Source: a virus
Taxonomy: Duplodnaviria > Heunggongvirae > Uroviricota > Caudoviricetes
Direction: 5' to 3' (one strand)
Length of the DNA: 29,035 nucleotides
Virus record (IMG/VR): IMGVR_UViG_2850778813_000007
Shown: positions 3,674-29,035 of the stretch, piece by piece
How the letters are laid out: each line of letters opens with the position of its first letter
Position numbering within the stretch: position 1 is the first letter of the stretch
Notes under the pieces: model-generated
The model's database searches: none
What the model was told of the DNA's origin: nothing
What the model saw: only the letters and a program-made list of their open reading frames with translations
Made by a program: the position numbers and the translations under genes

Positions 3674-5554
3674 TTATGCGGCTGCTCCAGCTTTGTTTGC
3701 TTTAACTTCCACCGTATCAATAAGTACAGGGTAGGTTTCTGCACTACCTGTAATATCCGTAATGACAAACCTGTTGAGTCCATTAGCAGTATTGGCCCAT
3801 TTCACCAGGTCAAACGCCTGTCCATCCACACCATCAAGCACCGGAGTAACATTAATGCTGTTACTGCCCTTAAATTTAAATGCAAGCGTATGCCAGTCAT
3901 GGTCGAATGCGCCAAACGTGCCAAGTTCTTTTTGTTGATTAACTGTATGATGGTATGCAATATTAATACTGGCTTTATCTGTCTGGACAAAGAAAGAACT
4001 CAGATGGCCTTCACCACCCTCACCCGGCCATTCCGCTATTCGCCAGTACAAACCAAAGGCATACTTGTTTCTGGTTGTCTCAAGATTGACGTTTTCGGGG
4101 ATTTTAAACCGGACAGCAATTTCCCCGCCTTTTTCCAGTAAAAGTTTTGCCTTGTCTGCAGCAATATCACAGTACATTGACCAGGATTTCGCGCTGTTAT
4201 TTTTCTCAATTCGCAGAGCTTTATTGCCGCTGTCATCAACCAGTGTGCGTCTGCCATACATACCGTCCCAGCCATAAGGTTTCAGCTGATTGTCTGTAGC
4301 TTTTTTGGCATCGTAAAAAATTACAGACTCTGAGGTGGTAACCGGCCTGTCTGGAACAACCACCCCGGCAGTACCATTAACAAACGCAGAAGACTTACCC
4401 GCGCAGCTCAGAATCGCCGTTGCCAGACGGTCGGAAATAATCCCACGGCGAGCCCATGAACTGAAATGGCTCGCCCTGTCCTGTGACGTCCAGGTGGCTG
4501 AGCTGTCACGCCATTTCGAACCGTAATAACCGATACCCGGAATGTCCGGGTCTTCTTCCGGTTTGTTCGTCGGCACATTCACCCCGTTCTCATCGGTCAT
4601 GAACGGTACGAAATGGATATTCTTTTCCGTTTTATTTTTATAGCTGCCGTACACCGTCTGGTACGTGGATTCGTTCTTCTGCTTCCAGAAATACGTCGTG
4701 TCCCCGCATATCCAGGGAACACCGCCAGCAGAGCCACCGACGCACTGGCCTGCCATATCCGCCAGGTCTGCACGGAATTTATCAACCAGCGCACCAAACT
4801 GTGCGGCATGATTTGCCGGCGTACCGCCAAAATCAAATTCCCCCTGCATCCACACCACGGCAAACAGCACATTTTTCGGGTTCTTCTCCAGTGCCGCTTT
4901 TGTTCGACCGATAAGGTCCTTATACAGCGGCTTGTCCACACCCCAGCGGGTTGAATTCTCCGAGGCACCACTCGCGTCACTGTATGTGCCATCAGCTCCG
5001 GTGGTGAACGCTGAACCACCACGACAGCACGGAACCAGCAGAATGCCCGCATTCGCCGGTATAAACGGCAGCAGTTTTTTGGCGATATGCAGCCCCTGCC
5101 CCACGGTTCCGTACTGCCCCTTTGACAGGTCCGCTTTCGGATGGTTAAGACGGCTCATGTCCTGCACATCATGCAGACAATGGTCCGCCGGAATGATGTC
5201 GTTATATTTGCATGCTGCACCGCCCGGTGTCACCGTACTGCGACGCGCCAGTTGCTTAATACGCGGGTCCGGACGGTCATATGTCCCCGGCAGCGGAAGG
5301 CCTTCACCATACGACATGCCGTTTGACTGCCCTGCCAGAACCACAACAAAGTAATACTCCGGGTTGCTGGTGGCGCTGATTACTGCACCTTCTGCTGCAA
5401 TCGCCTGCATCAGAGTATAAGGGGTTATGGCCACCGGACTACCAAACGGCTGCCAGCCCTCTTTCAGTTTATGTGTCAGCTTTTCCGCAAGATCTGACGG
5501 CGACGCCGCCCTGACAACATCATAGTGTTTAAATGCCATGGTTCTTTCCACCAT
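3674..5554 (-). CDS. nanS-p: NanS-p-type prophage 9-O-acetyl-sialate esterase (DUF1737 N-terminus plus SASA/SGNH esterase domain)
   Basis: 626-aa ORF; VVVLAGQSNGMSYG motif typical of sialate O-acetylesterases; this family sits immediately downstream of stxAB in Stx phages. Start is ATG 5554 or ATG 5539. Confidence 0.8.
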   Translation of the reverse strand: MVERTMAFKHYDVVRAASPSDLAEKLTHKLKEGWQPFGSPVAITPYTLMQAIAAEGAVISATSNPEYYFVVVLAGQSNGMSYGEGLPLPGTYDRPDPRIKQLARRSTVTPGGAACKYNDIIPADHCLHDVQDMSRLNHPKADLSKGQYGTVGQGLHIAKKLLPFIPANAGILLVPCCRGGSAFTTGADGTYSDASGASENSTRWGVDKPLYKDLIGRTKAALEKNPKNVLFAVVWMQGEFDFGGTPANHAAQFGALVDKFRADLADMAGQCVGGSAGGVPWICGDTTYFWKQKNESTYQTVYGSYKNKTEKNIHFVPFMTDENGVNVPTNKPEEDPDIPGIGYYGSKWRDSSATWTSQDRASHFSSWARRGIISDRLATAILSCAGKSSAFVNGTAGVVVPDRPVTTSESVIFYDAKKATDNQLKPYGWDGMYGRRTLVDDSGNKALRIEKNNSAKSWSMYCDIAADKAKLLLEKGGEIAVRFKIPENVNLETTRNKYAFGLYWRIAEWPGEGGEGHLSSFFVQTDKASINIAYHHTVNQQKELGTFGAFDHDWHTLAFKFKGSNSINVTPVLDGVDGQAFDLVKWANTANGLNRFVITDITGSAETYPVLIDTVEVKANKAGAAA

Positions 5555-5799
5555 CTGAAAAATGATTCTTTAAAATACCTGACATGTAATACAGAAAAAA
5601 CACAAAACCATACCTTAAATAAAAACCTCATCATCAAGCAGATATGCATGGATAAACTACAAGACGAGATATAAACCACCCTGCATTTAAATAAACAATA
5701 AACAACATCAGAAAAATAATTCTGCTCTATGGTTTACATTCAAAAATATCATTTATTCTTTTCAGAACATCACCAGCAATGCATAAACAAGGAAACCAA

Positions 5800-6135
5800 A
5801 TGAAGTGGATTGTGATTGATACAGTTATCCAGCCATCATGCGGAATATCTTTTTCAGTCATATGGAGTAAAATAAAATTAATAATCTGGTATCAATCGGA
5901 TGCTTTCTTACCTCCTGAAAGTATATTTACACTGACTCACACAGGCATCATGCTCAATAACAAAGTGCTACCTGTAACCATTTACAACGTAGTACCATTC
6001 AATAAAACATTCTGGAATTTAATCAAAAACAGCCAGGAATGCCCTACAAATACAGATAACGTATTGAATGAATGCTTTAATAACCGTTGCACTCTGCAAA
6101 TATGTCCTTATGGGCTAAAACAACAAAGTCCATAA
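5800..6135 (+). CDS. Hypothetical 112-aa Cys-rich protein in an AT-rich insert at the stx-equivalent locus
   Basis: ORF track 5779..6135; ATG at 5800 preceded by AAGGAAA with 4-nt spacer; a long ORF in a visibly AT-rich segment is unlikely by chance; opposite strand to the late operon; five Cys residues, four of them in the last 25 residues; no signal peptide. Confidence 0.5.
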
Positions 6136-6425: not shown

Positions 6426-6502
6426 TGGCGCGTTCTACTGTATTCGAACCAGTGACCGATTGCTTAGAAGGCAATTGCTCTGTCCGGCTGAGCTAACAAC
6501 GC
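6426..6502 (-). tRNA. argO: tRNA-Arg (anticodon UCU), argO-like
   Basis: Manual fold: acceptor GCGTTGT, D-arm GCTC/GAGC, anticodon loop CTTCTAA, T-loop TTCGAAT, 3' GCCA encoded. One acceptor mismatch and a non-canonical 53-61 pair in my fold. Confidence 0.65.
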
Positions 6503-6518
6503 AGGATACAGATAATGA

Positions 6519-6592
6519 ACCGCCTTCGGGGACCCGAACTCCGCGCAACCAGCTTCGAAGGCTGGCGCTCTTTCCTGATGAGCTAATGGCGG
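6519..6592 (-). tRNA. argN: tRNA-Arg (anticodon UCG), argN-like; possibly imperfect
   Basis: Manual fold: D-arm TAGCTC..GAGC, anticodon stem CCAGC/GCTGG with loop CTTCGAA; acceptor and T stems each carry one mismatch and position 1 is C. Confidence 0.5.
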
Positions 6593-6602
6593 TATGTGAT
6601 AG

Positions 6603-6675
6603 TGGCCCTTGCTGGATTTGAACCAGCGACCTGGCGATTATGAGTCGCTCGCTCTCACCACTGAGCTAAAGGGCC
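6603..6675 (-). tRNA. ileZ: tRNA-Ile2 (anticodon CAU, lysidine type), ileZ/ileX-like
   Basis: Sequence GGCCCTTTAGCTCAGTGGTGAGAGCGAGCGACTCATAATCGCCAGGTCGCTGGTTCAAATCCAGCAAGGGCCA folds canonically and closely matches E. coli ileX; CCA not encoded. Confidence 0.8.
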
Positions 6676-6724: not shown

Positions 6725-7774
6725 TCAAACGATTAAATCCTGAACTTCCCTGACTGTCTGCTCAAAACGTCCTGTCTCCAGTTCAACGCCAATCGCACGA
6801 CGCCCGAGCGCCAGTGCCGCTTTTACCGTTGAACCCGACCCCATGAAAAAATCCGCAACCAGATCACCAGGACGACTACTTGCGCTGATTATCTGCTGCA
6901 GCATTTCTGCCGGTTTTTCGCACGGATGTTTCCCGGGATAGAACTGCACCGGTTTATGTGTCCACACATCCGTGTACGGCACCTGCGCCGTCACACCAAA
7001 ATACCGCCGCAGATGTTTATATTCACTCTGCAGCTCCGCATACTGTCGGTTCAGTGAAGTATACGTATCCACCAGCTGGTGGTGGGGCTTTTCCAGTTCC
7101 CCCCGCTGATGCTTCTCTTCTGCCACCCTGGCAAACAGTGCCTGTAATTTCAGATAATCGCTTTCGTTCGGCAACTGCCACTGACTGGCACTGAACCAGT
7201 GCGACACCATGTTTTTCTTTCCTGTGGCATCTGCAATCTGTTTTGCCGTTATCCCCAGGGCCGCGCATGCATCACGAAAGTAAGAAATCAGCGGGGCCAT
7301 CACATGCTGTTTCAGTGCCCTGCCCTTCGCCTCATACCCGGCATCTTTCGGACGATACGGCCCCTGATAATGTTCCGCGAACAGAATGCGCTCTGTGGCG
7401 GGGAAATACGCCCGCAGGCTTTCCTTGTTGCACCCGTTCCAGCGTCCGGAAGGCTTCGCCCAGATAATATGGTTCAGCACACTGAAGCGTTCACGCATCA
7501 TGATTTCGATATCAGATGCCAGGCGATGACCACAGAACAGGTAAAGACTTCCGGCAGGTTTCAGCACCCGCCAGAACTGCGCCAGACACTGGTCCAGCCA
7601 CTTCAGGTAATCATCGTCGCCCTTCCACTGGTTATCCCAGCCCTCAGGCTTCACTTTAAAGTACGGCGGGTCCGTGACTATCAGGTCAACAGAATTTTCG
7701 GGTAACGACCGGATAAATTCCAGGCAGTCGGCGTTGATTAACTCACAACTGGATATTTTTACAGTATTAAGCAT
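6725..7774 (-). CDS. DNA methyltransferase, N6-adenine/N4-cytosine family (beta class: DPPY motif IV before FxGSGS motif I)
   Basis: 349-aa ORF; LIVTDPPY near the N-terminus and DFFMGSGST near the C-terminus; no adjacent restriction endonuclease candidate. Confidence 0.8.
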   Translation of the reverse strand: MLNTVKISSCELINADCLEFIRSLPENSVDLIVTDPPYFKVKPEGWDNQWKGDDDYLKWLDQCLAQFWRVLKPAGSLYLFCGHRLASDIEIMMRERFSVLNHIIWAKPSGRWNGCNKESLRAYFPATERILFAEHYQGPYRPKDAGYEAKGRALKQHVMAPLISYFRDACAALGITAKQIADATGKKNMVSHWFSASQWQLPNESDYLKLQALFARVAEEKHQRGELEKPHHQLVDTYTSLNRQYAELQSEYKHLRRYFGVTAQVPYTDVWTHKPVQFYPGKHPCEKPAEMLQQIISASSRPGDLVADFFMGSGSTVKAALALGRRAIGVELETGRFEQTVREVQDLIV

Positions 7775-7910
7775 GGATCATTAAGCCTGTCTCTGATAGG
7801 CTCATTCTGCTTTTGCGCAAAGCAGTGGGCCTGAGGTTTGCTTGTGAACCCAACGCATGAGCAGATGGCTGGTGGGTGCCCCTAACACCCACCAGCCGCC
7901 CATTTACCAC

Positions 7911-7938
7911 AAATAAAAAAGCCTTCACTGCGGAAGGC
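7911..7938 (-). terminator. Rho-independent terminator (second terminator downstream of Q)
   Basis: Minus strand GCCTTC-CGCAGT-GAAGGC followed by TTTTTTATTT; the stop codon of the 65-codon ORF lies inside the stem. Confidence 0.5.
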
Positions 7939-8122
7939 GTCTGTAACAACCGAACTGATAGTCTGCCAGACCCGCCATAACCAGCTGGGTCAGTATTAAC
8001 TGGCAGCGTTCGCGTGAAAGGTAAGTATTCTGCGCTATCTCCCCGACTGTCGCCGGTTCGGTAACGCTTAATTCATTAAACACCACTCTGGCGGTTTCTG
8101 TCATATCCTGCTGTTTTAGCAT
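7925..8122 (-). CDS. Hypothetical 65-aa protein between Q and the methyltransferase (possible small DNA-binding protein)
   Basis: ORF track 7925..8209; ATG at 8122 preceded by AAGGGAAAAAGAC; flanked by terminators on both sides. Confidence 0.3.
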   Translation of the reverse strand: MLKQQDMTETARVVFNELSVTEPATVGEIAQNTYLSRERCQLILTQLVMAGLADYQFGCYRRLPQ

Positions 8123-8244
8123 GTCTTTTTCCCTTTTCCGGTTAACGTGACACACCAATAACTCTTGTCGAAAAAGCCAGCAAGCTGAAAGACAGGTATT
8201 CACCGCCACCAGCGCGTTTACTGTACTGACGCGATTTCAGTCAT

Positions 8245-8266
8245 AAAAAACCCGCCAGGCGGCGGG
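8245..8266 (-). terminator. Rho-independent terminator about 85 nt downstream of the Q stop (tR'-like position)
   Basis: Minus strand CCCGCC-GCCT-GGCGGG followed by TTTTTTAT. Confidence 0.5.
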
Positions 8267-8348
8267 GTGTAAAAAATCTTCTAACGTCAGGCATAAAACG
8301 CCCATCATTAGAGCAAATTTACCACAGATTCGGGAAAAATCAACAACA

Positions 8349-9170
8349 CTATCGCGTTACCCTCTTTAACTGCCGCTCCGCCCATGCCTCTTCAATGTCA
8401 AACCGAACCACCAACGTATCGTAAAAGCGTTTCACTGATTTTTTCCACGTATCAAGCGTGATAGCACTCGTCACTTTGCATATGGCATTAAATGCCTCCG
8501 TTGATGGTAGTCTTTCACAGCCACGACCACCACAACGCTGGCAGTCTCTGATAACAGGCATACCACGTTTTACCGACTCTTCACGATGAATGGCGACACC
8601 ACGCCCACGGCAATCCTTACAGGCGGTGGAAACCTCACCCTTTCCGCCACACTCCGGACAGGCAACTTTTACCACCTCCCTGACTTTTTTCCATTCTTCC
8701 CAGTAAGACGGATACACGCCTTTTGTGCACTTTGCCCACACTGGTGGCTTACCATCCGGATACTGGATCTTGTTTGTAAAAACCTCGCTTTCAATAAATT
8801 TTTTTCCGTGACAGCAGGGGCACTGTTTTTTGCTCGCCGCGCTACGGGCATAATCTTCAAACGCATACGAAGCCATAATGCGCATCACTACCGGTTTTAT
8901 TTCTGCCGGAAGTTTTCTCAACGCCGCTACACGATCGCACCGACTGAGTGCATAATCTGCCAGTAATTCTGTTGCCCGCGCCCTGTCATTCATACTGATG
9001 CCCATTTTCCCCAGGAACGCAGAAAACCCCATCTCAGCCCGATTCTGTGTCATGCCCTGCGCGGCCATCACATCAGTGATACTCAGCGCATCTTTTGACG
9101 TTGAGGCCGATGCATCGGTCAGGCTAGGGGATTTTGGGGAGTAGTATTTCGGTAAATCTTCCAGTTTCAT
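8349..9170 (-). CDS. Putative late-gene antiterminator Q-like protein with four CxxCxGxG zinc-ribbon repeats
   Basis: 273-aa ORF directly downstream of rusA and upstream of terminators and late genes (the Q position); CPCCHGKK, CPECGGKG, CKDCRGRG, CQRCGGRG repeats. Family assignment is by position and length, not confirmed. Confidence 0.5.
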   Translation of the reverse strand: MKLEDLPKYYSPKSPSLTDASASTSKDALSITDVMAAQGMTQNRAEMGFSAFLGKMGISMNDRARATELLADYALSRCDRVAALRKLPAEIKPVVMRIMASYAFEDYARSAASKKQCPCCHGKKFIESEVFTNKIQYPDGKPPVWAKCTKGVYPSYWEEWKKVREVVKVACPECGGKGEVSTACKDCRGRGVAIHREESVKRGMPVIRDCQRCGGRGCERLPSTEAFNAICKVTSAITLDTWKKSVKRFYDTLVVRFDIEEAWAERQLKRVTR

Positions 9171-9541
9171 TTTTTGACCTGCTCTTCATGCATTATGGGG
9201 TAAATCTTCACCCCCATACGTCCACCAGATACTGGCTGACCACGAACGATATTGATTTCATCAAACTGCTCATCGTCCATTAACACTCCCGCATGCGTCA
9301 GCGCATCCAGCGGTGCTTTCAGGATATTGTCCAGGTCGCGACGACGCTTATCCGGTGGCTCTGCAATCACCTTTATCGCCAGCCTTCCGGACAGGCTTAA
9401 TTTCAGCCGCTGCTGGCGAACAATAAGCGCCACAGCCCGGCGATAACGCTTTCCCTCCTCCGAGATAAAATATGTGCTGCCACGGCGTCGCCAGTAAGTG
9501 TTCACCGTCGGCGGGTAAGGTAAAACCAAATCTATGAGCAT
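9167..9541 (-). CDS. rusA: Holliday junction resolvase RusA
   Basis: 124-aa ORF; LPYPPTVNTYW...DKRRRDLDNILKAPLDALTHAGVLMDDEQ matches the RusA family signature; 4-nt overlap with the upstream Q-like gene. Confidence 0.85.
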   Translation of the reverse strand: MLIDLVLPYPPTVNTYWRRRGSTYFISEEGKRYRRAVALIVRQQRLKLSLSGRLAIKVIAEPPDKRRRDLDNILKAPLDALTHAGVLMDDEQFDEINIVRGQPVSGGRMGVKIYPIMHEEQVKK

Positions 9542-9715
9542 CAGTCACCTCTTTTACCCAAGCACGCCAGTTGCAAAGGCGTGATCAAGAAAACGAAAAA
9601 TTAAATCAACCTGAGAACCATGCTTTTCTTCGAACGCCAGAGGATCCGCATGAAGCTCGTTGTGATGCTCCCGACACAGCGGTAGCGTGAAAATATCGTG
9701 AGATTTTGTCCCCAT

Positions 9716-10549
9716 TCAGCCCTGACCATGACCAATCAGGTGATGGGGATCGTCGGCTGGCTTACCACAACACGCACACGGCTGTGTCTTCACCCAGCGT
9801 GTGTATTTCTCGTTAACCCAGCGGCGACGTTTTGGGCGTAACATAAAAGACTCCGGCGACTCCGGATCCACTTTCAGCGCCAGCACCTTTTTCGCCTTAT
9901 CCTGGATGATGCTGGTGGCAGGAACCGAAGGCACAAGGTCACTTTCCCGGGTGACAGACGGCACAACAGGCTTCGGTAATCTCAGTGCCTTACGGGCTGC
10001 ACTTTCCGGTAAGGCATCCGCCAGGTCATTACGAATCAGCCACCAGCACAGTTCCGGCATTGTCACAACGTGACTGTCATCAAAACCGAGATCCCGACGC
10101 ACAACAGACAACACCCAGCGGGCACAGTTATCCGTTGCCATTGATTCCAGCCGTTCCGTGAACTGGTCACGGAGAAGATTGTCACAGTGCCAGCACAGAC
10201 GGATTGCGCCTGGCGCGTGCCGCATTGTGGTCATGTTCTCGCTGTGCCAGTCGGAATGAGGCCACTGACAGCCCTTTTCACGAAGTAACCAGCTCTCAAG
10301 GCATTCCACGCCACCAGCACGACGGATCACCGCCTCATGGCGGAACACGGCCCGAACGGCAGGATCATCCGCCAGCGGTTGTGATGCTGCCGGAACGGCA
10401 CCGCTGGCGAAAGATGAATAACGTTCCGGCTCAGGCTCCAGCAGGACACGCCCCTGCATAAACAGGGGCATCAGCTCTGAACCGGGCCTGAACAATACAA
10501 TCCCCATTCGCGGGGCAATTTCAGGAGTCAACAATGCTCTCACGGTCAC
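9716..10549 (-). CDS. Phage protein with C-terminal HNH-like motif, interrupted by an in-frame TGA (DUF968-like by position next to rusA)
   Basis: 277-aa ORF ending CACCGKPADDPHHLIGHGQG then TGA; the same frame continues for 52 codons (9557..9715) with PLCREHHNELH, completing an HNH-type motif. Confidence 0.55.
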   Translation of the reverse strand: MTVRALLTPEIAPRMGIVLFRPGSELMPLFMQGRVLLEPEPERYSSFASGAVPAASQPLADDPAVRAVFRHEAVIRRAGGVECLESWLLREKGCQWPHSDWHSENMTTMRHAPGAIRLCWHCDNLLRDQFTERLESMATDNCARWVLSVVRRDLGFDDSHVVTMPELCWWLIRNDLADALPESAARKALRLPKPVVPSVTRESDLVPSVPATSIIQDKAKKVLALKVDPESPESFMLRPKRRRWVNEKYTRWVKTQPCACCGKPADDPHHLIGHGQG

Positions 10550-10594: not shown

Positions 10595-10852
10595 TCACGC
10601 AGTAAACTCCTTCACCAGCGTTTCAAACTGGCTTACCTGGCCTTCCAGTTCCGCCACGCAATCCACCAGCTCATCCACCGCCTTTTGTGTACGGTGTTTT
10701 GCCTGCAGCAGATCACGAAGCGCCGGAGTAAGCTGCTTGCGGAGCGTATCTTTTGCCACGCTCGTTTTTTCCATCTGTTCAGCACAACGAAGCATCTCCT
10801 GCGCCTGCCGACGAAGTTGTTCCGGTGAAACAGTGATTGTTCTGTTGTTCAA
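10595..10852 (-). CDS. Hypothetical 85-aa helical protein
   Basis: ORF track; charged helical sequence; ATGA overlap with the helicase gene stop. Confidence 0.45.
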
Positions 10853-12250
10853 AATAAACGCTCCGTTTTACTGCCCGACATGCGGTTATTGCTGTATCTG
10901 CGCGGATTGCCCGGCGTCATGGGTGTGGAAAGAACCCGGGCACTCTCCTGGTCCACAGGCAGAAAATGTCCGTTATGAAAACGCCGGTAAATGGTCCCGA
11001 GCGTGCCATTACGCTGTTTCGTGATGTTGATTTCTGCTATGCCTCTGGCCTGAGTTTCCGGGTTGTATACCTCATCCCTGTAAAGCATCAGAATGATGTC
11101 GGCATCCGCCTCGATTTCCCCGGAGTTTTTCAGGTCCGAGTTCATTGGGCGTTTATTGGGTCTGGATTCCACGCCGCGGGAGAGCTGGCTCAGAGCAATC
11201 AGCGGAAAACCGCCGGATTTTGCCAGGCTTTTAAGTCCCTTTGAGATTTCCCCCACCGCAAGGTCGTGACGCCCCGTACTGCGGGTTTTAATCAGGCCGA
11301 GGTAATCGACCACCACCAGCGCCGTTTCCGGGTGTTTCATCCGGTGGTGCTTCGTGGTTGCACATATCTCATCAATGGGTCAGGTTTGCCTGGTCCACCA
11401 TCCAGATATTACGCCCCGTCATTCGTCCCACGCCCTGCGAGAAACGCGCCCAGTCTTCATCTTCAAAACGGGCAACAGACTTAAGACGGGATACCGGCAT
11501 TCCACCGGCAGCAGACACCATACGTTCACCAATCTGGATGTTCGCCATCTCCATGGTGAACAGAAGCACGCCATGCCCCTGCTCAGTCACCTTGTCGATG
11601 ATGTCCAGCGCAAGTTCGGTTTTCCCCATCGAAGGACGGGCGGCAATGAATACCAGGTCTCCGGGCTCCATACCGCCCGTTTTTGCGTCCAGTTCATCAA
11701 TACCGGTCATCAGCGCCCTGGATTTCTCCAGTCCCTGATTGCGGCATTCAACACGGTCGACCACTTCCAGAAGGACATCATCAATGTGAACCGGCTGAAT
11801 GACGCCCTTTCCGGTCGACAGTGAGGCCATCATGTTCTGCACATCCTTCAGGGCATCCTCGGCTGCTTCACAGGTATACGCATCACGTAAATTCTGTAAT
11901 GCTTCAGTCAGTGTTTTTTCTGCATCGCGCAGTGCGGCATTGCGCCGCAACGCTGCGACATAGTGCTCCAGTGAAGACTTCACCCAGGTTTTGCGTCCGG
12001 TGTCGGTAATCACCGGGGCAAGTTCCGGCATCTCATTGCACAGCAGTACGGGGTCAATGACGCCGGATATGCGAGCCTGTCTGCAAATCCCCGCGTAAAT
12101 ATCCCGGTACTGACGCACAAAAAATACATCCGCCGGAAGTGTGGCCAGAATATCCATCACTTCCGGATCGGCCCCACGCAGAAAAAACGCACCGATGACA
12201 GCGCCTTCCAGGTCATCGTTACGCCATGCCGGGGTGTTCTGGCTGGTCAT
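10849..12250 (-). pseudogene. DnaB-like replicative helicase, split into two ORFs by a frameshift
   Basis: N-part 11372..12250 and C-part 10849..11340 (Walker-B-like [44 protein letters not shown]) lie in different frames; removing one G from the GGG run at 11377..11379 restores ..[34 protein letters not shown]. Confidence 0.7.
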
Positions 12251-13135: not shown

Positions 13136-14116
13136 TCAGAATGTCAATTTGTTACTGGATTTACCGAATTTGTCAGACATGGCTCCCAGGCCAGCCAGGA
13201 CATCAACCTGTCGCTGTCGCCCACCTCCGTGAGCGGCTGGCTGTTGCCAGTAATCTTCGAAGTGACGATCGGGTCCAAAGAACGTCGCAGCCTGCTTCAC
13301 GAACTGTGTGCCGGTATTTCCTGTAGCACGTACCCAGGCGGCATACCGCTTCACGCCATCAAGCATGGTCTCCGGTTTTATTCCTTCCCTGATACGGGCT
13401 TTCCAGGCTTTGAAGGCTGCTGACTTGGAATTGCCACCAGCACGTTTGGGATATTCCTGCCAGGCCTGTTCAAATTCCGGTGAATATTCCTGTCGGGCAG
13501 AACGCGCTGGCGCAGACGCGTCAGCGGATGCATCAATAGTGTTTTTAGTCTCCGTTGTAATCTCTGTATTTGTATCAACATTCGGCGTATCCCCTGTTCC
13601 GTTATGACGTCGGGGGGTGTTCCGTTTTAACGTAATAGCTGTATCGCTGATTGCATTATTGCTGTTACTTTCTGGCGAAACAGAAGAAGGTGTGGTGATG
13701 GCCGCAATTGCCTGTGGGTTGATCCCGACAAACAAAATATTGCTGCATTTCACCCCATCGAGCATTTCCACCGTGCGTAAATCCAGAGTAATAAACCCTG
13801 CATCGCGCAGACGCTTCAGCGCATCTGCGGTTTCCCTTTTCCCGAAACCAAACTGCTCAGCAAACGCCTGGTAGCTTCTTTGCAGTTTGTCGCCCTGAAA
13901 ACGCTTGCGATATCCCAGCAACGCTCCGGTGTGCTCATCCCTGACCTCTGTCGGGCGGTACCAGTAAACGATCTCTGAAAGCAGAGCGATAGCCGTCGCA
14001 TCCGGACGCCCACTGGGTAGTCGAATATATTTCCACCAGTTCGCAGGTGTAACATTGCCGGAAATATTAATTTGACCAATAGCCATAACTTCCGGTGTGG
14101 GGGCGTAACGGCTCAT
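13136..14116 (-). CDS. Phage replication initiation protein (O-like position)
   Basis: 326-aa ORF immediately upstream of the loader and helicase; low-complexity T/N/S-rich central linker; conserved-looking C-terminal KAWKARIREGI..VKRYAAWVRA motif; family not verified. Confidence 0.55.
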   Translation of the reverse strand: MSRYAPTPEVMAIGQINISGNVTPANWWKYIRLPSGRPDATAIALLSEIVYWYRPTEVRDEHTGALLGYRKRFQGDKLQRSYQAFAEQFGFGKRETADALKRLRDAGFITLDLRTVEMLDGVKCSNILFVGINPQAIAAITTPSSVSPESNSNNAISDTAITLKRNTPRRHNGTGDTPNVDTNTEITTETKNTIDASADASAPARSARQEYSPEFEQAWQEYPKRAGGNSKSAAFKAWKARIREGIKPETMLDGVKRYAAWVRATGNTGTQFVKQAATFFGPDRHFEDYWQQPAAHGGGRQRQVDVLAGLGAMSDKFGKSSNKLTF

Positions 14117-18704: not shown

Positions 18705-19610
18705 CTATATTTCCAGACATCTGTTATCACTTAACCCATTACAAGCCCGCTGCCGCAGATATTCCCGTGGCGAGCGATAACCCAGCGCACTATGCGGATG
18801 CCATTCGTTATAATGCTCGAACGCCTCTGCAAGGTTCTTTGCTGCCGTTAACCCGTCTGGTTTGGGCATGATACTGATGTAGTCACGCTTTATCGTTTTC
18901 ACGAAGCTCTCTGCTATTCCGTTACTCTCCGGACTCCGCACCGCCGTGTTCTTCGGTTCAAGTCCCAACATCCGGGCGAACTGGCGTGTTTCATTAGCCC
19001 GGTAGCATGAACCATTATCCGTCAGCCACTCCACTGGAGACGACGGAAGATCGTTGCCGAAGCGGCGTTCCACCGCTCCCAGCATGACGTCCTGTACTGT
19101 TTCACTGTTGAAGCCGCCGGTAGTCACCGCCCAGTGCAGTGCCTCACGATCACAGCAGTCCAGCGCGAACGTGACACGCAGTCTCTCTCCGTTATCACAG
19201 CAGAACTCGAACCCGTCAGAGCACCATCGCTGATTGCTTTCTTTCACGGCCACTCTGCCTGTATGTGCCCGTTTCGATGGTGGTACAGCAGGTTTTCGCT
19301 CAAGCAACAGGGCATTCTGGCGCATGATCCGGTAAACACGTTTGGCATTGATCGCAGGCATACCATCAAGTTCTGCCTGTCTGCGAAGCAGCGCCCATAC
19401 CCGACGATAACCATACGTGGGCAGCTCTCCGATAACATGGTGTATACGGAGAAGCACATCCGTATCATCAGTGTGACGACTGCGGCGGCCATCCATCCAG
19501 TCATCGGTTCGTCTGAGAATGACGTGCAACTGCGCACGCGACACCCGGAGACAACGGCTGACTAAGCTTACTCCCCATCCCCGGGTAATAAGGGCGCGTG
19601 CGCTATCCAC
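18705..19610 (-). CDS. insD: IS2 transposase OrfB (InsD)
   Basis: 301-aa ORF matching IS2 InsD (DDE integrase-type domain). Confidence 0.9.
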
Positions 19611-19933
19611 TTTTTTGCCCGTCCATATTCAACGGCTTCTTTGAGGAGTTCATTTTCCATCGTTTTCTTGCCGAGCAGGCGCTGGAGTTCTTTAATCTGC
19701 TTCATGGCGGCAGCAAGTTCAGAGGCAGGAACAACCTGTTCTCCGGCGGCCACAGCAGTAAGACTTCCTTCCTGGTATTGCTTACGCCAGAGAAATAACT
19801 GGCTGGCTGCTACACCATGTTGCCGGGCAACGAGGGAGACCGTCATCCCCGGTTCAAAGCTCTGCTGAACAATTGCGATCTTTTCCTGTGTGGTACGCCG
19901 TCTGCGTTTCTCCGGCCCTAAGACATCAATCAT
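19568..19933 (-). CDS. insC: IS2 OrfA (InsC)
   Basis: ORF track 19568..19978; internal Met gives the 121-aa InsC ([26 protein letters not shown]...). Confidence 0.85.
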
Positions 19934-20107
19934 CTGTACTCCAATGACTAGTCTAAAAACTAGTATTAAGACTATCACTTATTTAAGTGATACTGGTTGT
20001 CTGGAGATTCAGGGGGCCAGTCTAACCGCCTGCCTTATTGCACAATACGGTGAAAATTACATGCATATTGCCTGCTTATTTCTGCGTAAAGCATACGGGA
20101 GATAATA

Positions 20108-23230: not shown

Positions 23231-23302
23231 TGAAGTGGCACACTGAATTTGGCCACCTGAACAGAGGTGATATGCTCACCTCAGAACAACACAGGTGCTC
23301 CA

Positions 23303-24384
<1,082 letters not shown>

Positions 24385-26268: not shown

Positions 26269-26646
26269 ATGGACGAACAGTGGGGATACGTCGGGGCTAA
26301 ATCGCGCCAGCGCTGGCTGTTTTACGCGTATGACAGGCTCCGGAAGACGGTTGTTGCGCACGTATTCGGTGAACGCACTATGGCGACGCTGGGGCGTCTT
26401 ATGAGCTTGCTGTCACCCTTTGACGTGGTGATATGGATGACGGATGGCTGGCCACTGTATGAATCCCGCCTGAAGGGAAAGCTGCACGTAATCAGCAAGC
26501 GATATACGCAGCGAATTGAGCGGCATAACCTGAATCTGAGGCAGCACCTGGCACGGCTGGGACGGAAGTCTCTGTCGTTCTCAAAATCGGTGGAGCTGCA
26601 TGACAAAGTCATCGGGCATTATCTGAACATAAAACACTATCAATAA
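26269..26646 (+). CDS. insB: IS1 InsB' (ATG-initiated part of the insB frame; expressed as InsAB' by -1 frameshift)
   Basis: ORF track; product matches the IS1 InsB C-terminal region; A6C slippery motif near 26200. Confidence 0.85.
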
Positions 26647-26661
26647 GTTGGAGTCATTACC

Positions 26662-27187
26662 CCGTAGGAATTATACAAAACTTGGCGAATTCACTCCACC
26701 AAAAACCGATGCTGGCACCGGAAGGACAATTCATCTGGTTCAACCAGCTATTGATGCTCTTAAAAGTCAGGCGGAAATGACCATGCTTGGAAAGCAACAT
26801 TCTGTAGAGGTAAAGCAGAGGGAATATGGGAGAAGTACTGTGCATAAATGCACTTTTGTTTTTAGTCCTCAGGTAATAAAACAGCGGCAGTTTTCCGGAC
26901 CGCACTATAAGGTTGACTCCATCAGGGAGTCATGGACAAGTATCTTAAAACGCGCAGGTCTGAGACACAGAAAATCGTACCAATCCAGGCATACTTATGC
27001 ATGCTGGTCACTTGCCGCTGGAGCTAATCCTAGTTTTATCGCAAGCCAGATGGGCCACACAAACGCACAAATGGTATTCAATGTTTACGGAGCATGGATG
27101 AAAGACAACAATCACGAACAGATAGAACTCCTTAACAAAAGACTATCTGAAAGTGTCCCATGTATGCCCCATAAGAAAGTGGGGTAA
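26662..27187 (+). pseudogene. Tyrosine integrase, C-terminal catalytic fragment truncated by IS1
   Basis: ORF 26648..27187 begins inside the IS1 terminus; remaining sequence carries catalytic-domain motifs (..RHTYACWSLAAGANPSFIASQMGHTNAQMVFNVYGAWM); only about 170 aa remain. Confidence 0.7.
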
Positions 27188-27225: not shown

Positions 27226-27801
27226 CCTGTCACGTTACGCGCGTGGCAGAGGCGTTACGGATTGCTGAAACCGCAACGGACAGACGGCGGTCATCGGCTG
27301 TTCAACGATGCCGATATTGACCGGATCCGCGAGATCAAACGCTGGATCGACAACGGCGTGCAGGTCAGCAAAGTTAAAATGCTGCTCAGTAATGAAAATG
27401 TTGATGTGCAGAACGGCTGGCGCGATCAGCAAGAAACATTACTGACTTACTTGCAAAGCGGCAATCTGCATAGCCTGCGAACGTGGATCAAAGAGCGCGG
27501 TCAGGATTACCCCGCCCAGACGCTCACCACGCATTTGTTTATTCCTCTGCGTCGACGGCTTCAGTGCCAACAACCGACTCTCCAGGCGCTGCTGGCGATC
27601 CTCGACGGCGTACTGATCAACTACATCGCCATCTGTCTGGCTTCGGCACGTAAAAAACAGGGTAAAGATGCGCTGGTGGTTGGCTGGAATATTCACGATA
27701 CCACCCGTCTGTGGCTGGAGGGCTGGATTGCCAGTCAACAAGGATGGCGCATTGATGTCCTCGCCCACTCGCTCAATGTAAGGCAGTATGACTTTCCGTG
27801 A
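27226..27801 (+). pseudogene. mlrA: mlrA (yehV) 3' portion, separated from its 5' end by the prophage
   Basis: In-frame translation from about 27226 reads ..PVTLRAWQRRYGLLKPQRTDGGHRLFNDADIDRIREIKRWIDNGVQVSKVKMLLSNENV..., matching MlrA from about residue 17; upstream sequence is phage (int). The last 7 residues differ from the MlrA C-terminus as I recall it. Confidence 0.65.
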
Positions 27802-27907
27802 GACAGATGCTGGCCAACGTGGGATATTTAACGCGGGTTAACATCGTTGTCAGAGCCGCATGGGTGAGCTGTTGCTACACCCCGGTATTTCCACCACGGA
27901 GGCCAGC

Positions 27908-29035
27908 ATGAACAACAATAACACATTGTACGTCGGGTTAGATGTTCACAAAGAATCGATTACTGTCGCTTATGCTATCAATTCAGAACCTGTTGAACTG
28001 ATGGGTAAAATTGGCACATCACCTACTGATATTCAGAATCTTTGTAAACGTCTCAGGTCAAAGTCATCGCAGGTCAGTATCGTTTATGAAGCGGGGCCCT
28101 GTGGTTATGGACTTTATCGTCGGCTGGTGAAATCCGGTTTTGACTGCATGGTCTGCGCCCCCTCACTTATCCCGAAAAAACCGGGGGAGCGGGTTAAAAC
28201 CGATCGCCGTGATGCCATCAGACTTGTGCGTTCACTGCGTGCAGGAGATCTTTCTGCTGTCTACGTACCCGGCATTGAAGATGAGGCATTCCGGGATTTG
28301 GCCCGGGCATGGGCATCTGCCCGCGATGATTTACGGCATGCAAGGCAACGTCTGAAATCGTTTCTTCTGGTTCATGGGGTCCATTATGTCGGGCGAGCAG
28401 ATTGGGGCCCTGCACACCGACGCTGGCTCAGCAAATACTCATTCGAAAGTCCCTGGCGACAATTAGCTTTTGACGAACACCGTCGTACAATAGAAGACCG
28501 GCAGGCACAATGTGAACGGCTGGAATCCGCCCTGAAGGAGGCCGTTACCGAATGGAGGCTGTATCCGGTAGTAGAGGCGCTGCAAGCCATGCGAGGGATT
28601 CAGTTTATTACTGCGGTTGGATTAATTTCTGAACTGGGTGATCTGACCCGTTTTGAACATCCACGACAACTGATGTCATGGTTTGGTATCACGCCATCAG
28701 AATATTCATCGGGTGGAAGCAGACATCAGGGCAGCATTACCAAAGCCGGAAACAGCTATGCCAGAAAGCTATTGGTCGAGGCAGCGTGGAGTTACCGTCA
28801 TCCGGCACGCATCAGTCCGGCAATACAAAAAAGGCAGGAAAATTTACCCCGCCCCGTCATTGACAGAGCATGGGATGCTCAACTCAGGCTTTGTAAGAGG
28901 TATCGAAAACTTCAGGCCAAAGGAAAGAATGTCAATATTACAATTGTTGCTGTTGCACGTGAGCTGGCGGGTTTTATCTGGGATATGGGCCGAATAGCAA
29001 TGTCTGTCGCACAACAACCACAATGTCACAAATAA
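27908..29035 (+). CDS. IS110-family transposase
   Basis: ORF track 27860..29035; ATG at 27908 preceded by GGAGG with 5-nt spacer; N-terminal LYVGLDVHKESITVAY motif typical of IS110-family transposases; stop codon is the last triplet of the window. Confidence 0.75.
   Translation: MNNNNTLYVGLDVHKESITVAYAINSEPVELMGKIGTSPTDIQNLCKRLRSKSSQVSIVYEAGPCGYGLYRRLVKSGFDCMVCAPSLIPKKPGERVKTDRRDAIRLVRSLRAGDLSAVYVPGIEDEAFRDLARAWASARDDLRHARQRLKSFLLVHGVHYVGRADWGPAHRRWLSKYSFESPWRQLAFDEHRRTIEDRQAQCERLESALKEAVTEWRLYPVVEALQAMRGIQFITAVGLISELGDLTRFEHPRQLMSWFGITPSEYSSGGSRHQGSITKAGNSYARKLLVEAAWSYRHPARISPAIQKRQENLPRPVIDRAWDAQLRLCKRYRKLQAKGKNVNITIVAVARELAGFIWDMGRIAMSVAQQPQCHK

Follow-up and report, generated by a model that had tools for sequence, protein, structure and literature searches.

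The DUF968 family (PF06147), to which YdfU of the Qin prophage of E. coli K-12 belongs, corresponds to group 7 of the His-Me finger proteins in the classification of Jablonska et al. 2017 (PMC5714182). That study placed DUF968 and DUF1364, the family of YbcO, in the His-Me finger (HNH) superfamily, and it lists RusA and the antiterminator Q as typical genomic neighbours. A C-terminal zinc-finger HNH motif has also been described for DUF968 by Curtis et al. (PMC4118853). In the literature that we searched, we found no biochemical characterisation of an enterobacterial DUF968 protein. Experimental information is available for Gp16 of the Staphylococcus phage PhiNM1, a RecA-interacting HNH nickase: its toxicity is abolished by the C148A, C181A, and H184A exchanges and partly relieved by H185A and H189A (PMC12817073). 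The Ref protein of phage P1 (PDB 3plw) is an HNH endonuclease that depends on RecA and carries a disordered basic N-terminus, and YbcO of the DLP12 prophage (DUF1364, PDB 3g27) consists of a single domain of 96 residues.

The window, i. e. the whole stretch of 29,035 nucleotides that was analysed, contains a DUF968 gene on the minus strand between rusA and the replication genes of a lambdoid prophage. While the intact orthologs are named by RefSeq as 'DUF968 domain-containing protein', the copy in the window is very probably a nonsense pseudogene: a single G-to-T exchange has interrupted this His-Me finger (HNH) gene of a defective prophage, and the altered allele was inherited from one origin. 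The case is an ordinary one, as the phage nuclease family is known and the prophage that carries the pseudogene is defective. The domain is of full length once the stop codon is bridged, and, as described for the DUF968 group, the genes for RusA and the antiterminator Q are adjacent.

The reading frame of the gene is broken by an in-frame TGA (9718..9716, minus strand). The upstream ORF ends with ...CACCGKPADDPHHLIGHGQG directly before this TGA, and beyond it the unchanged frame reads MGTKSHDIFTLPLCREHHNELHADP...GVLG through 53 sense codons (9715..9557) until it reaches a TAA at 9556..9554. An earlier note on this DNA had reported that a TGA at this place splits one frame, and re-reading of the sequence reproduced both its coordinates and its peptide strings. 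The open frame down to the TAA was also found as described, but it counts 53 codons rather than the 52 that had been given. Similarly, the 277-aa ORF of that note does exist as the maximal ORF that starts from the GTG at 10549, but the likeliest product is a protein of 275 amino acids that starts from the GTG at 10543. The latter start is better supported: it has a GAGG Shine-Dalgarno sequence 5 nt upstream, the RefSeq orthologs start at the matching position, and the gene callers used for the carrier genomes give 275 aa. With this start, the gene consists of a 5' fragment of 275 codons plus the premature stop (9716..10543, minus strand) and a 3' remnant of 53 codons plus the native TAA (9554..9715, minus strand), and the intact protein therefore has 329 amino acids, in good agreement with the size of about 330 that had been proposed. 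In the numbering of this 329-aa protein, the premature opal codon (9716..9718, minus strand) is G276*. The 3' remnant opens with the methionine that is conserved in the family, and for this reason gene callers annotate it separately as an ORF of 53 amino acids; judged from its sequence, it is a remnant of the DUF968 gene rather than a gene of its own.

The two pieces are parts of a single domain, as the earlier note had suggested, and the resemblance is not due to chance. When the stop codon is bridged, the protein matches Pfam DUF968 with 263.2 bits (E=1.4e-78), well above the gathering threshold of 27.8 bits. The 5' piece alone matches profile positions 2-120 (169.5 bits), and the 53-aa piece by itself spans positions 122-171 of the 171 in the profile (77.9 bits, E=1.2e-21). 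The assignment to the HNH type was likewise borne out: PHROG 96, 'HNH endonuclease', covers the intact ortholog from end to end (E=2.5e-174), and this agrees both with the published His-Me finger class (PMC5714182) and with the profile alignment to Gp16 that is described below. The HNHc_6 family (PF16784) reached 22.7 bits, just below its cut-off of 26.6, although precomputed matches to this family are present in many homologs. A search of NCBIfam returned no family, and a search of the PDB with the single sequence gave only a spurious match. With a profile made from 26 homologs, the PDB search resulted in weak matches to YbcO (E=0.028) and to the HNH domains of IscB, with the cysteine and histidine residues aligned. 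Among the 26 homologs, C256, D264, D265, P266, H267, H268, C290, and R291 are invariant, and C259, H294, and H298 are nearly so. The core HNH/zinc-finger motif, C256-x2-C259...H267-H268...C290-x2-H293-H294-x3-H298 (9650..9778, minus strand), is defined by these homologs and by the alignment with Gp16, and it is cut by the stop codon. The 5' fragment encodes the N-terminal region, the CxxC pair (codons 256-259), and the two histidines of strand beta-1 (codons 267-268), whereas, according to conservation and a structure model, strand beta-2, the helix with C290, H293, H294, and H298, and the C-terminal helices would be encoded by the 3' remnant. For the homolog P0041, an AlphaFold2 model with a mean pLDDT of 74 (mostly 80-93 in the C-terminal domain) has a strand at 107-110, a loop, a second strand at 128-131, and a helix at 133-141. 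The stop codon corresponds to G118 of this model, in the loop between the strands where the pLDDT is about 66. The intact protein thus has the beta-beta-alpha-metal arrangement of the His-Me finger/HNH superfamily, with the catalytic histidine on strand 1, the metal-binding histidines on the helix, and zinc ligands formed by cysteine and histidine residues; in the allele of the window, these elements are separated by the stop.

The gene for Gp16 is located in DQ530359 at 8051-8722, and in this phage, too, rusA is found nearby. In an hhalign comparison, Gp16 matched the DUF968 profile with a probability of 96% (E=4e-9, 39% identity over 62 columns), and with 29.1 bits against DUF968 it also exceeds the gathering threshold of 27.8 bits. 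The two proteins share a homologous HNH zinc-finger domain with the common pattern C-x8-H...C-x2-H-H-x3-H, in which C148, H157, C181, H184, H185, and H189 of Gp16 align with C259, H268, C290, H293, H294, and H298 of the window protein. The last four of these residues of the window protein are all located downstream of G276*. Outside this domain the proteins differ: Gp16 has 223 amino acids, HNHc_6 (PF16784) as its main family, and an N-terminal domain similar to NinB/Orf, whereas the protein of the window has 329 amino acids with an N-terminal region of 220 residues. For P1 Ref, there is no match at the level of sequence, and it was absent from the PDB profile matches at E<=10. By predicted structure, Ref is nevertheless the protein nearest to the C-terminal domain of enterobacterial DUF968, although the Foldseek comparison with the model did not reach significance by itself. 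The disordered basic N-terminus of Ref contrasts with the 220-residue N-terminal region of the window protein, and YbcO differs from it in being a small single-domain protein.

What did the TGA replace? In the nearest intact relatives, the complete E. coli genomes SF-088, AR_0372, and TD225-C4 (93-98% identity), the codon at this position is GGA. The lesion is therefore a single G-to-T exchange on the coding strand that converts GGA (Gly276) to TGA; on the plus strand, position 9718 is A here and C in the relatives. A nonsense mutation, which the earlier note had ranked as most likely, is supported by this result, and GGA is exactly the former sense codon that the note had considered possible. 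The 3' part of the gene aligns with all three relatives without gaps, and the alignment with SF-088 is free of gaps over all 990 nt, with 19 substitutions. Gly276 is retained in 25 of 26 diverse homologs in an alignment that reaches down to 53% identity, so that the residue at the position of the TGA is a conserved glycine. The homologs do not end at this point but continue, and the 53 codons downstream are conserved family sequence in which T, K, D, C, R, and L residues are invariant and His residues nearly so. The premature stop is thus located at the position of a conserved sense codon, and sequence that is conserved in the family is lost downstream of it. Between intact relatives and the window, the ratios of synonymous to non-synonymous codon changes are 16:2, 47:5, and 30:0 when the stop codon is left out, showing strong purifying selection on the intact relatives. 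The 162 nt downstream of the stop contain no further lesion: the DNA of the 3' remnant is identical to that of the intact SF-088 gene, and there is hardly any difference among the TGA carriers. Since this stretch is unchanged, decay after the stop is not visible. This would fit a recent event, but would in itself be no proof that the gene has lost its function.

The TGA allele is not limited to the window. Look-up of the exact 53-aa and 275-aa products identified at least five other assemblies: the 990-nt gene with the TGA is identical in the complete chromosomes CP026866.1, CP026762.1, and CP026797.1 and in the draft LPTP01000149.1, and it differs by 1 nt in the draft assembly LPTT01000109.1. 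In addition, the TGA is present on an IMG/VR contig that shares 99.94% identity with the window along 13.7 kb; for CP026797.1, the identity is 99.97% over 19.7 kb. The 275-aa product has been deposited as SPZ87804.1, 'bacteriophage protein [Shigella boydii]', and is present on about 20 contigs. The carrier copies of the prophage differ from the window at 6, 8 (the IMG/VR contig), 45, and 110 positions, and all of them have kept the TGA. To see how far the allele extends, we searched with a 41-mer that has the mutated base in its middle, for which a megablast match is possible only if the central base is identical. The TGA version was found in none of 5,426 complete E. coli genomes; the GGA version was present in 1,752 of them, with loci annotated as DUF968 genes among the matches listed. 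With a codon-degenerate pattern, in which every synonymous background was permitted, there was a single match for TGA in viral contigs, again the same prophage, as compared to at least 120 viral contigs for the GGN control, and the TGA pattern was absent from metagenome contigs and from species-representative genomes. TGA on other synonymous backgrounds, which we had considered, was discarded on these results. Taken together, these sequence comparisons indicate that the allele is genuine, of a single origin, and confined to one prophage lineage.

Among the nearly identical prophages that carry the TGA, several indels were observed: one of 12 nt at about 13569, within a 326-aa ORF of the replication region, one of at least 14 nt at about 3286, and single-base indels at 13617 and 5120. 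Moreover, a contig from Logan SRR31599427 (L016, 1501-2325) codes for the same 275 residues, its codon changes being 30 synonymous and 0 non-synonymous. It has a different phage background with KilA-N upstream, and its sequence stops exactly one codon before the mutated position; this end could be a branch of the assembly graph or a coincidence.

The surroundings of the gene are those of a decaying prophage. The genes follow the order of a lambdoid early-right operon: replication genes, a DnaB-type helicase, an ORF of 85 amino acids, the DUF968 gene, rusA, Q, a DNA methylase, and a tRNA cluster. The neighbouring gene had been taken for rusA, and this is corroborated by a Pfam RusA match and by RefSeq orthologs: it encodes an intact protein of the Holliday-junction resolvase family (124 aa; 9167..9541, minus strand) and starts 12 nt past the TAA of the DUF968 gene. 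The Q-type antiterminator gene is also intact (273 aa; 8349..9170, minus strand), as judged by Pfam Antiterm and the annotation of the RefSeq ortholog. A second lesion of the operon affects the DnaB-type replicative helicase (10849..12250, minus strand): in the alignment with SF-088, one additional C within the CCC run at about 11377-11379 causes a +1 frameshift that divides the gene into ORFs of 292 and 163 amino acids, with Pfam DnaB_C split over the two. The intact helicase of E. coli SF-088 has 466 amino acids, and the split is common to all assemblies that carry the TGA. The left arm of the prophage is rich in IS elements: it contains IS2 (18705-19978) and a truncated IS3-family element (23267-24357), as well as further remnants of IS elements, the integrase, and a host gene (26269-27187 and 27262-29035). 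There, a fragment of IS1 InsB directly abuts the C-terminal half of the phage integrase, and a fragment of the host gene mlrA (yehV) is followed by a transposase of the IS110 family. The insertion site of the prophage seems to be mlrA, and, as deduced from its sequence, the prophage would be unable to excise. The IS load and the source name of the identical protein point to a host of the Shigella boydii type, and we assume from this source name that CP026797, CP026762, and CP026866 are probably derived from Shigella boydii.

Several other features of the window deserve mention. The tRNA cluster (6426-6675, minus strand), in which ARAGORN identified Arg(tct), Arg(tcg), and Met/Ile(cat), follows downstream of the methylase, a position that it also has in Stx-converting phages; no stx gene was apparent from the window's ORF lists, and the best phage matches are Stx2a phages with only about 92% identity over half of the window. 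The tRNA cluster and a gene for a NanS-p-like esterase (3674-5554) flank a PmrD-like ORF (5779-6135, plus strand) of the prophage; this ORF is named after the Pfam PmrD entries that the gene tables give for L005 and L007, two matching loci. The DNA methyltransferase gene (6725-7774, minus strand) is intact in the window with 349 codons, carries a frameshift in E. coli SF-088 according to the annotation, and is present as ORFs of 104 and 161 amino acids in CP026866.1 (loci compared: L001 5926-6974 and L005 11941-12990). Since the state of this gene differs, the members of the prophage group carry different lesions.

Could the TGA have arisen or be tolerated in another way? Sequencing errors, which the earlier note had considered, and assembly errors in the window record could result in a single-base difference of this type, and we have set this option aside as extremely improbable: the same base is present in the three complete chromosomes, the two draft assemblies, and the IMG/VR contig, the truncated product has its own accession, and the prophage copies that share the TGA differ from the window elsewhere. 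Just as improbable is a programmed recoding event, i. e. insertion of selenocysteine or an evolved readthrough at the UGA. All that speaks for it is an in-frame UGA with an open frame downstream. The homologs carry glycine at this position and never cysteine or selenocysteine, and a SECIS-like element, the search for which had been proposed earlier, was not detected: an Rfam search of 9300-10000 at E<=10 that included the SECIS models gave only a meaningless lncRNA match. When a stretch of 75 nt at and beyond the UGA was folded, it was no more stable than shuffled sequences (z=+0.64) and had no hairpin adjoining the UGA; the only centroid helix begins about 47 nt downstream. A SECIS or other recoding RNA was rejected on these grounds, as was an opal suppressor encoded by the phage, because the three tRNAs that ARAGORN found on the prophage are specific for Arg, Arg, and Met/Ile. 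Finally, the stop is present in one prophage lineage only, and the sequence downstream of it is identical to that of relatives with GGA; therefore nothing has co-evolved with the stop. Low-level readthrough had also been proposed, and for its programmed form there is neither a signal nor a conserved stop; an unprogrammed background leak at the UGA is possible. Residual function might result from such a leak, with tryptophan inserted at position 276, or from reinitiation at the adjacent ATG (UGAAUG) followed by reassembly of the pieces; we regard this as unlikely, if less so than recoding. In E. coli, UGA is comparatively leaky when the next base is A, as is the case here. UGA is also the leakiest stop codon in E. 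coli, and readthrough in a K-12 reporter was about 2-4%, i. e. about 2% at 37 C and 4% at 25 C (PMC10570021). In view of this context and these rates, a trace of a full-length Gly276Trp protein may be formed. Moreover, the ATG follows the stop directly, has an AGG 5 nt upstream, and opens into a frame that has stayed open. However, this ATG encodes the conserved methionine of the family (GGMGTK) and is no evolved start, the glycine that would be replaced is nearly invariant so that tryptophan may not be tolerated, and the split is located inside a small fold stabilised by zinc. The lack of a downstream structure or recoding signal and the restriction of the stop to a single lineage argue against residual function as well.

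The remaining alternative concerns the reason for the loss rather than its nature: the stop may have become fixed by selection, as the lysogen would suffer from an active DUF968 nuclease, and G276* would then be one of many independent inactivations in prophages of Escherichia and Shigella. If so, a DUF968 HNH nuclease would, like P1 Ref or PhiNM1 Gp16, damage the chromosome of the lysogen, and its loss would be selected in resident prophages. In a weaker variant of this idea, a leak at the UGA would keep up a trickle of active enzyme. This idea is in line with the inhibition of S. aureus growth upon expression of PhiNM1 Gp16 (PMC12817073) and with the reported increase in ciprofloxacin sensitivity of lysogens caused by P1 Ref (PMC4713147). 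In 7 out of 10 sampled loci of E. coli prophages, DUF968 is broken by IS insertions or frameshifts at various sites, and the orphan 53-aa ORF is recorded on more than 300 contigs. The frequency of this ORF in public contigs results from DUF968 genes that are broken in many ways in E. coli prophages. However, the ten loci had been picked by look-up of the orphan ORF and are thus biased towards broken genes, the GGA 41-mer is present in the 1,752 E. coli genomes mentioned above, with annotated DUF968 genes among the matches listed, and the helicase and the integrase are also broken in the same prophage, as neutral decay would predict. We therefore consider adaptive loss improbable, although it is a less remote option than leaky expression of the full-length protein. 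In the seven other loci with the 53-aa remnant ORF (L004, L006, L008, L009, L010, L012, and L013, about 7800-10162 each), codon 276 is GGA; L006 and L008 have an IS insertion in the gene, and in L004, L009, L010, L012, and L013 it is interrupted by frameshifts, the sites of which differ. A recurrent break point at codon 276 was discarded accordingly, as there is no hotspot at this codon.

We thus return to the nonsense pseudogene as by far the most probable explanation, and the following course of events can be proposed. The common ancestor of a small lineage of the Shigella boydii type would have undergone, a single time, a G-to-T transversion that turned the Gly276 codon GGA of the DUF968 gene into TGA, and the allele would then have been passed on vertically. 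Translation would end at codon 276, in the loop that connects strands 1 and 2 of the beta-beta-alpha-metal fold. The resulting 275-aa product would retain the N-terminal region, the CxxC pair, and the two histidines of strand 1, but it would lack strand 2, the helix with C290, H293, H294, and H298, which provide the third zinc ligand and the histidines for metal binding, as well as the C-terminal helices. Since these four residues are located downstream of G276*, the 275-aa product is predicted to be nuclease-dead, based on homology and on a structure model of medium confidence (mean pLDDT 74). The loss of the gene itself probably reflects neutral decay.

For annotation, the consequence is straightforward: in several Shigella-type genomes, gene callers give two proteins for the ORFs of 275 and 53 amino acids, and these should be merged into a single DUF968 pseudogene (G276*). 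Beyond annotation, the importance of the finding is small. It adds one more case of prophage decay in the IS-rich genomes of the Shigella type, and together with the frameshift in the helicase gene, G276* provides a clean internal marker for one prophage lineage. A side result of this work may be more useful than the pseudogene itself: the structural likeness to P1 Ref and the homology to Gp16 suggest a testable function for the intact protein of the YdfU family, which is very common in E. coli prophages.
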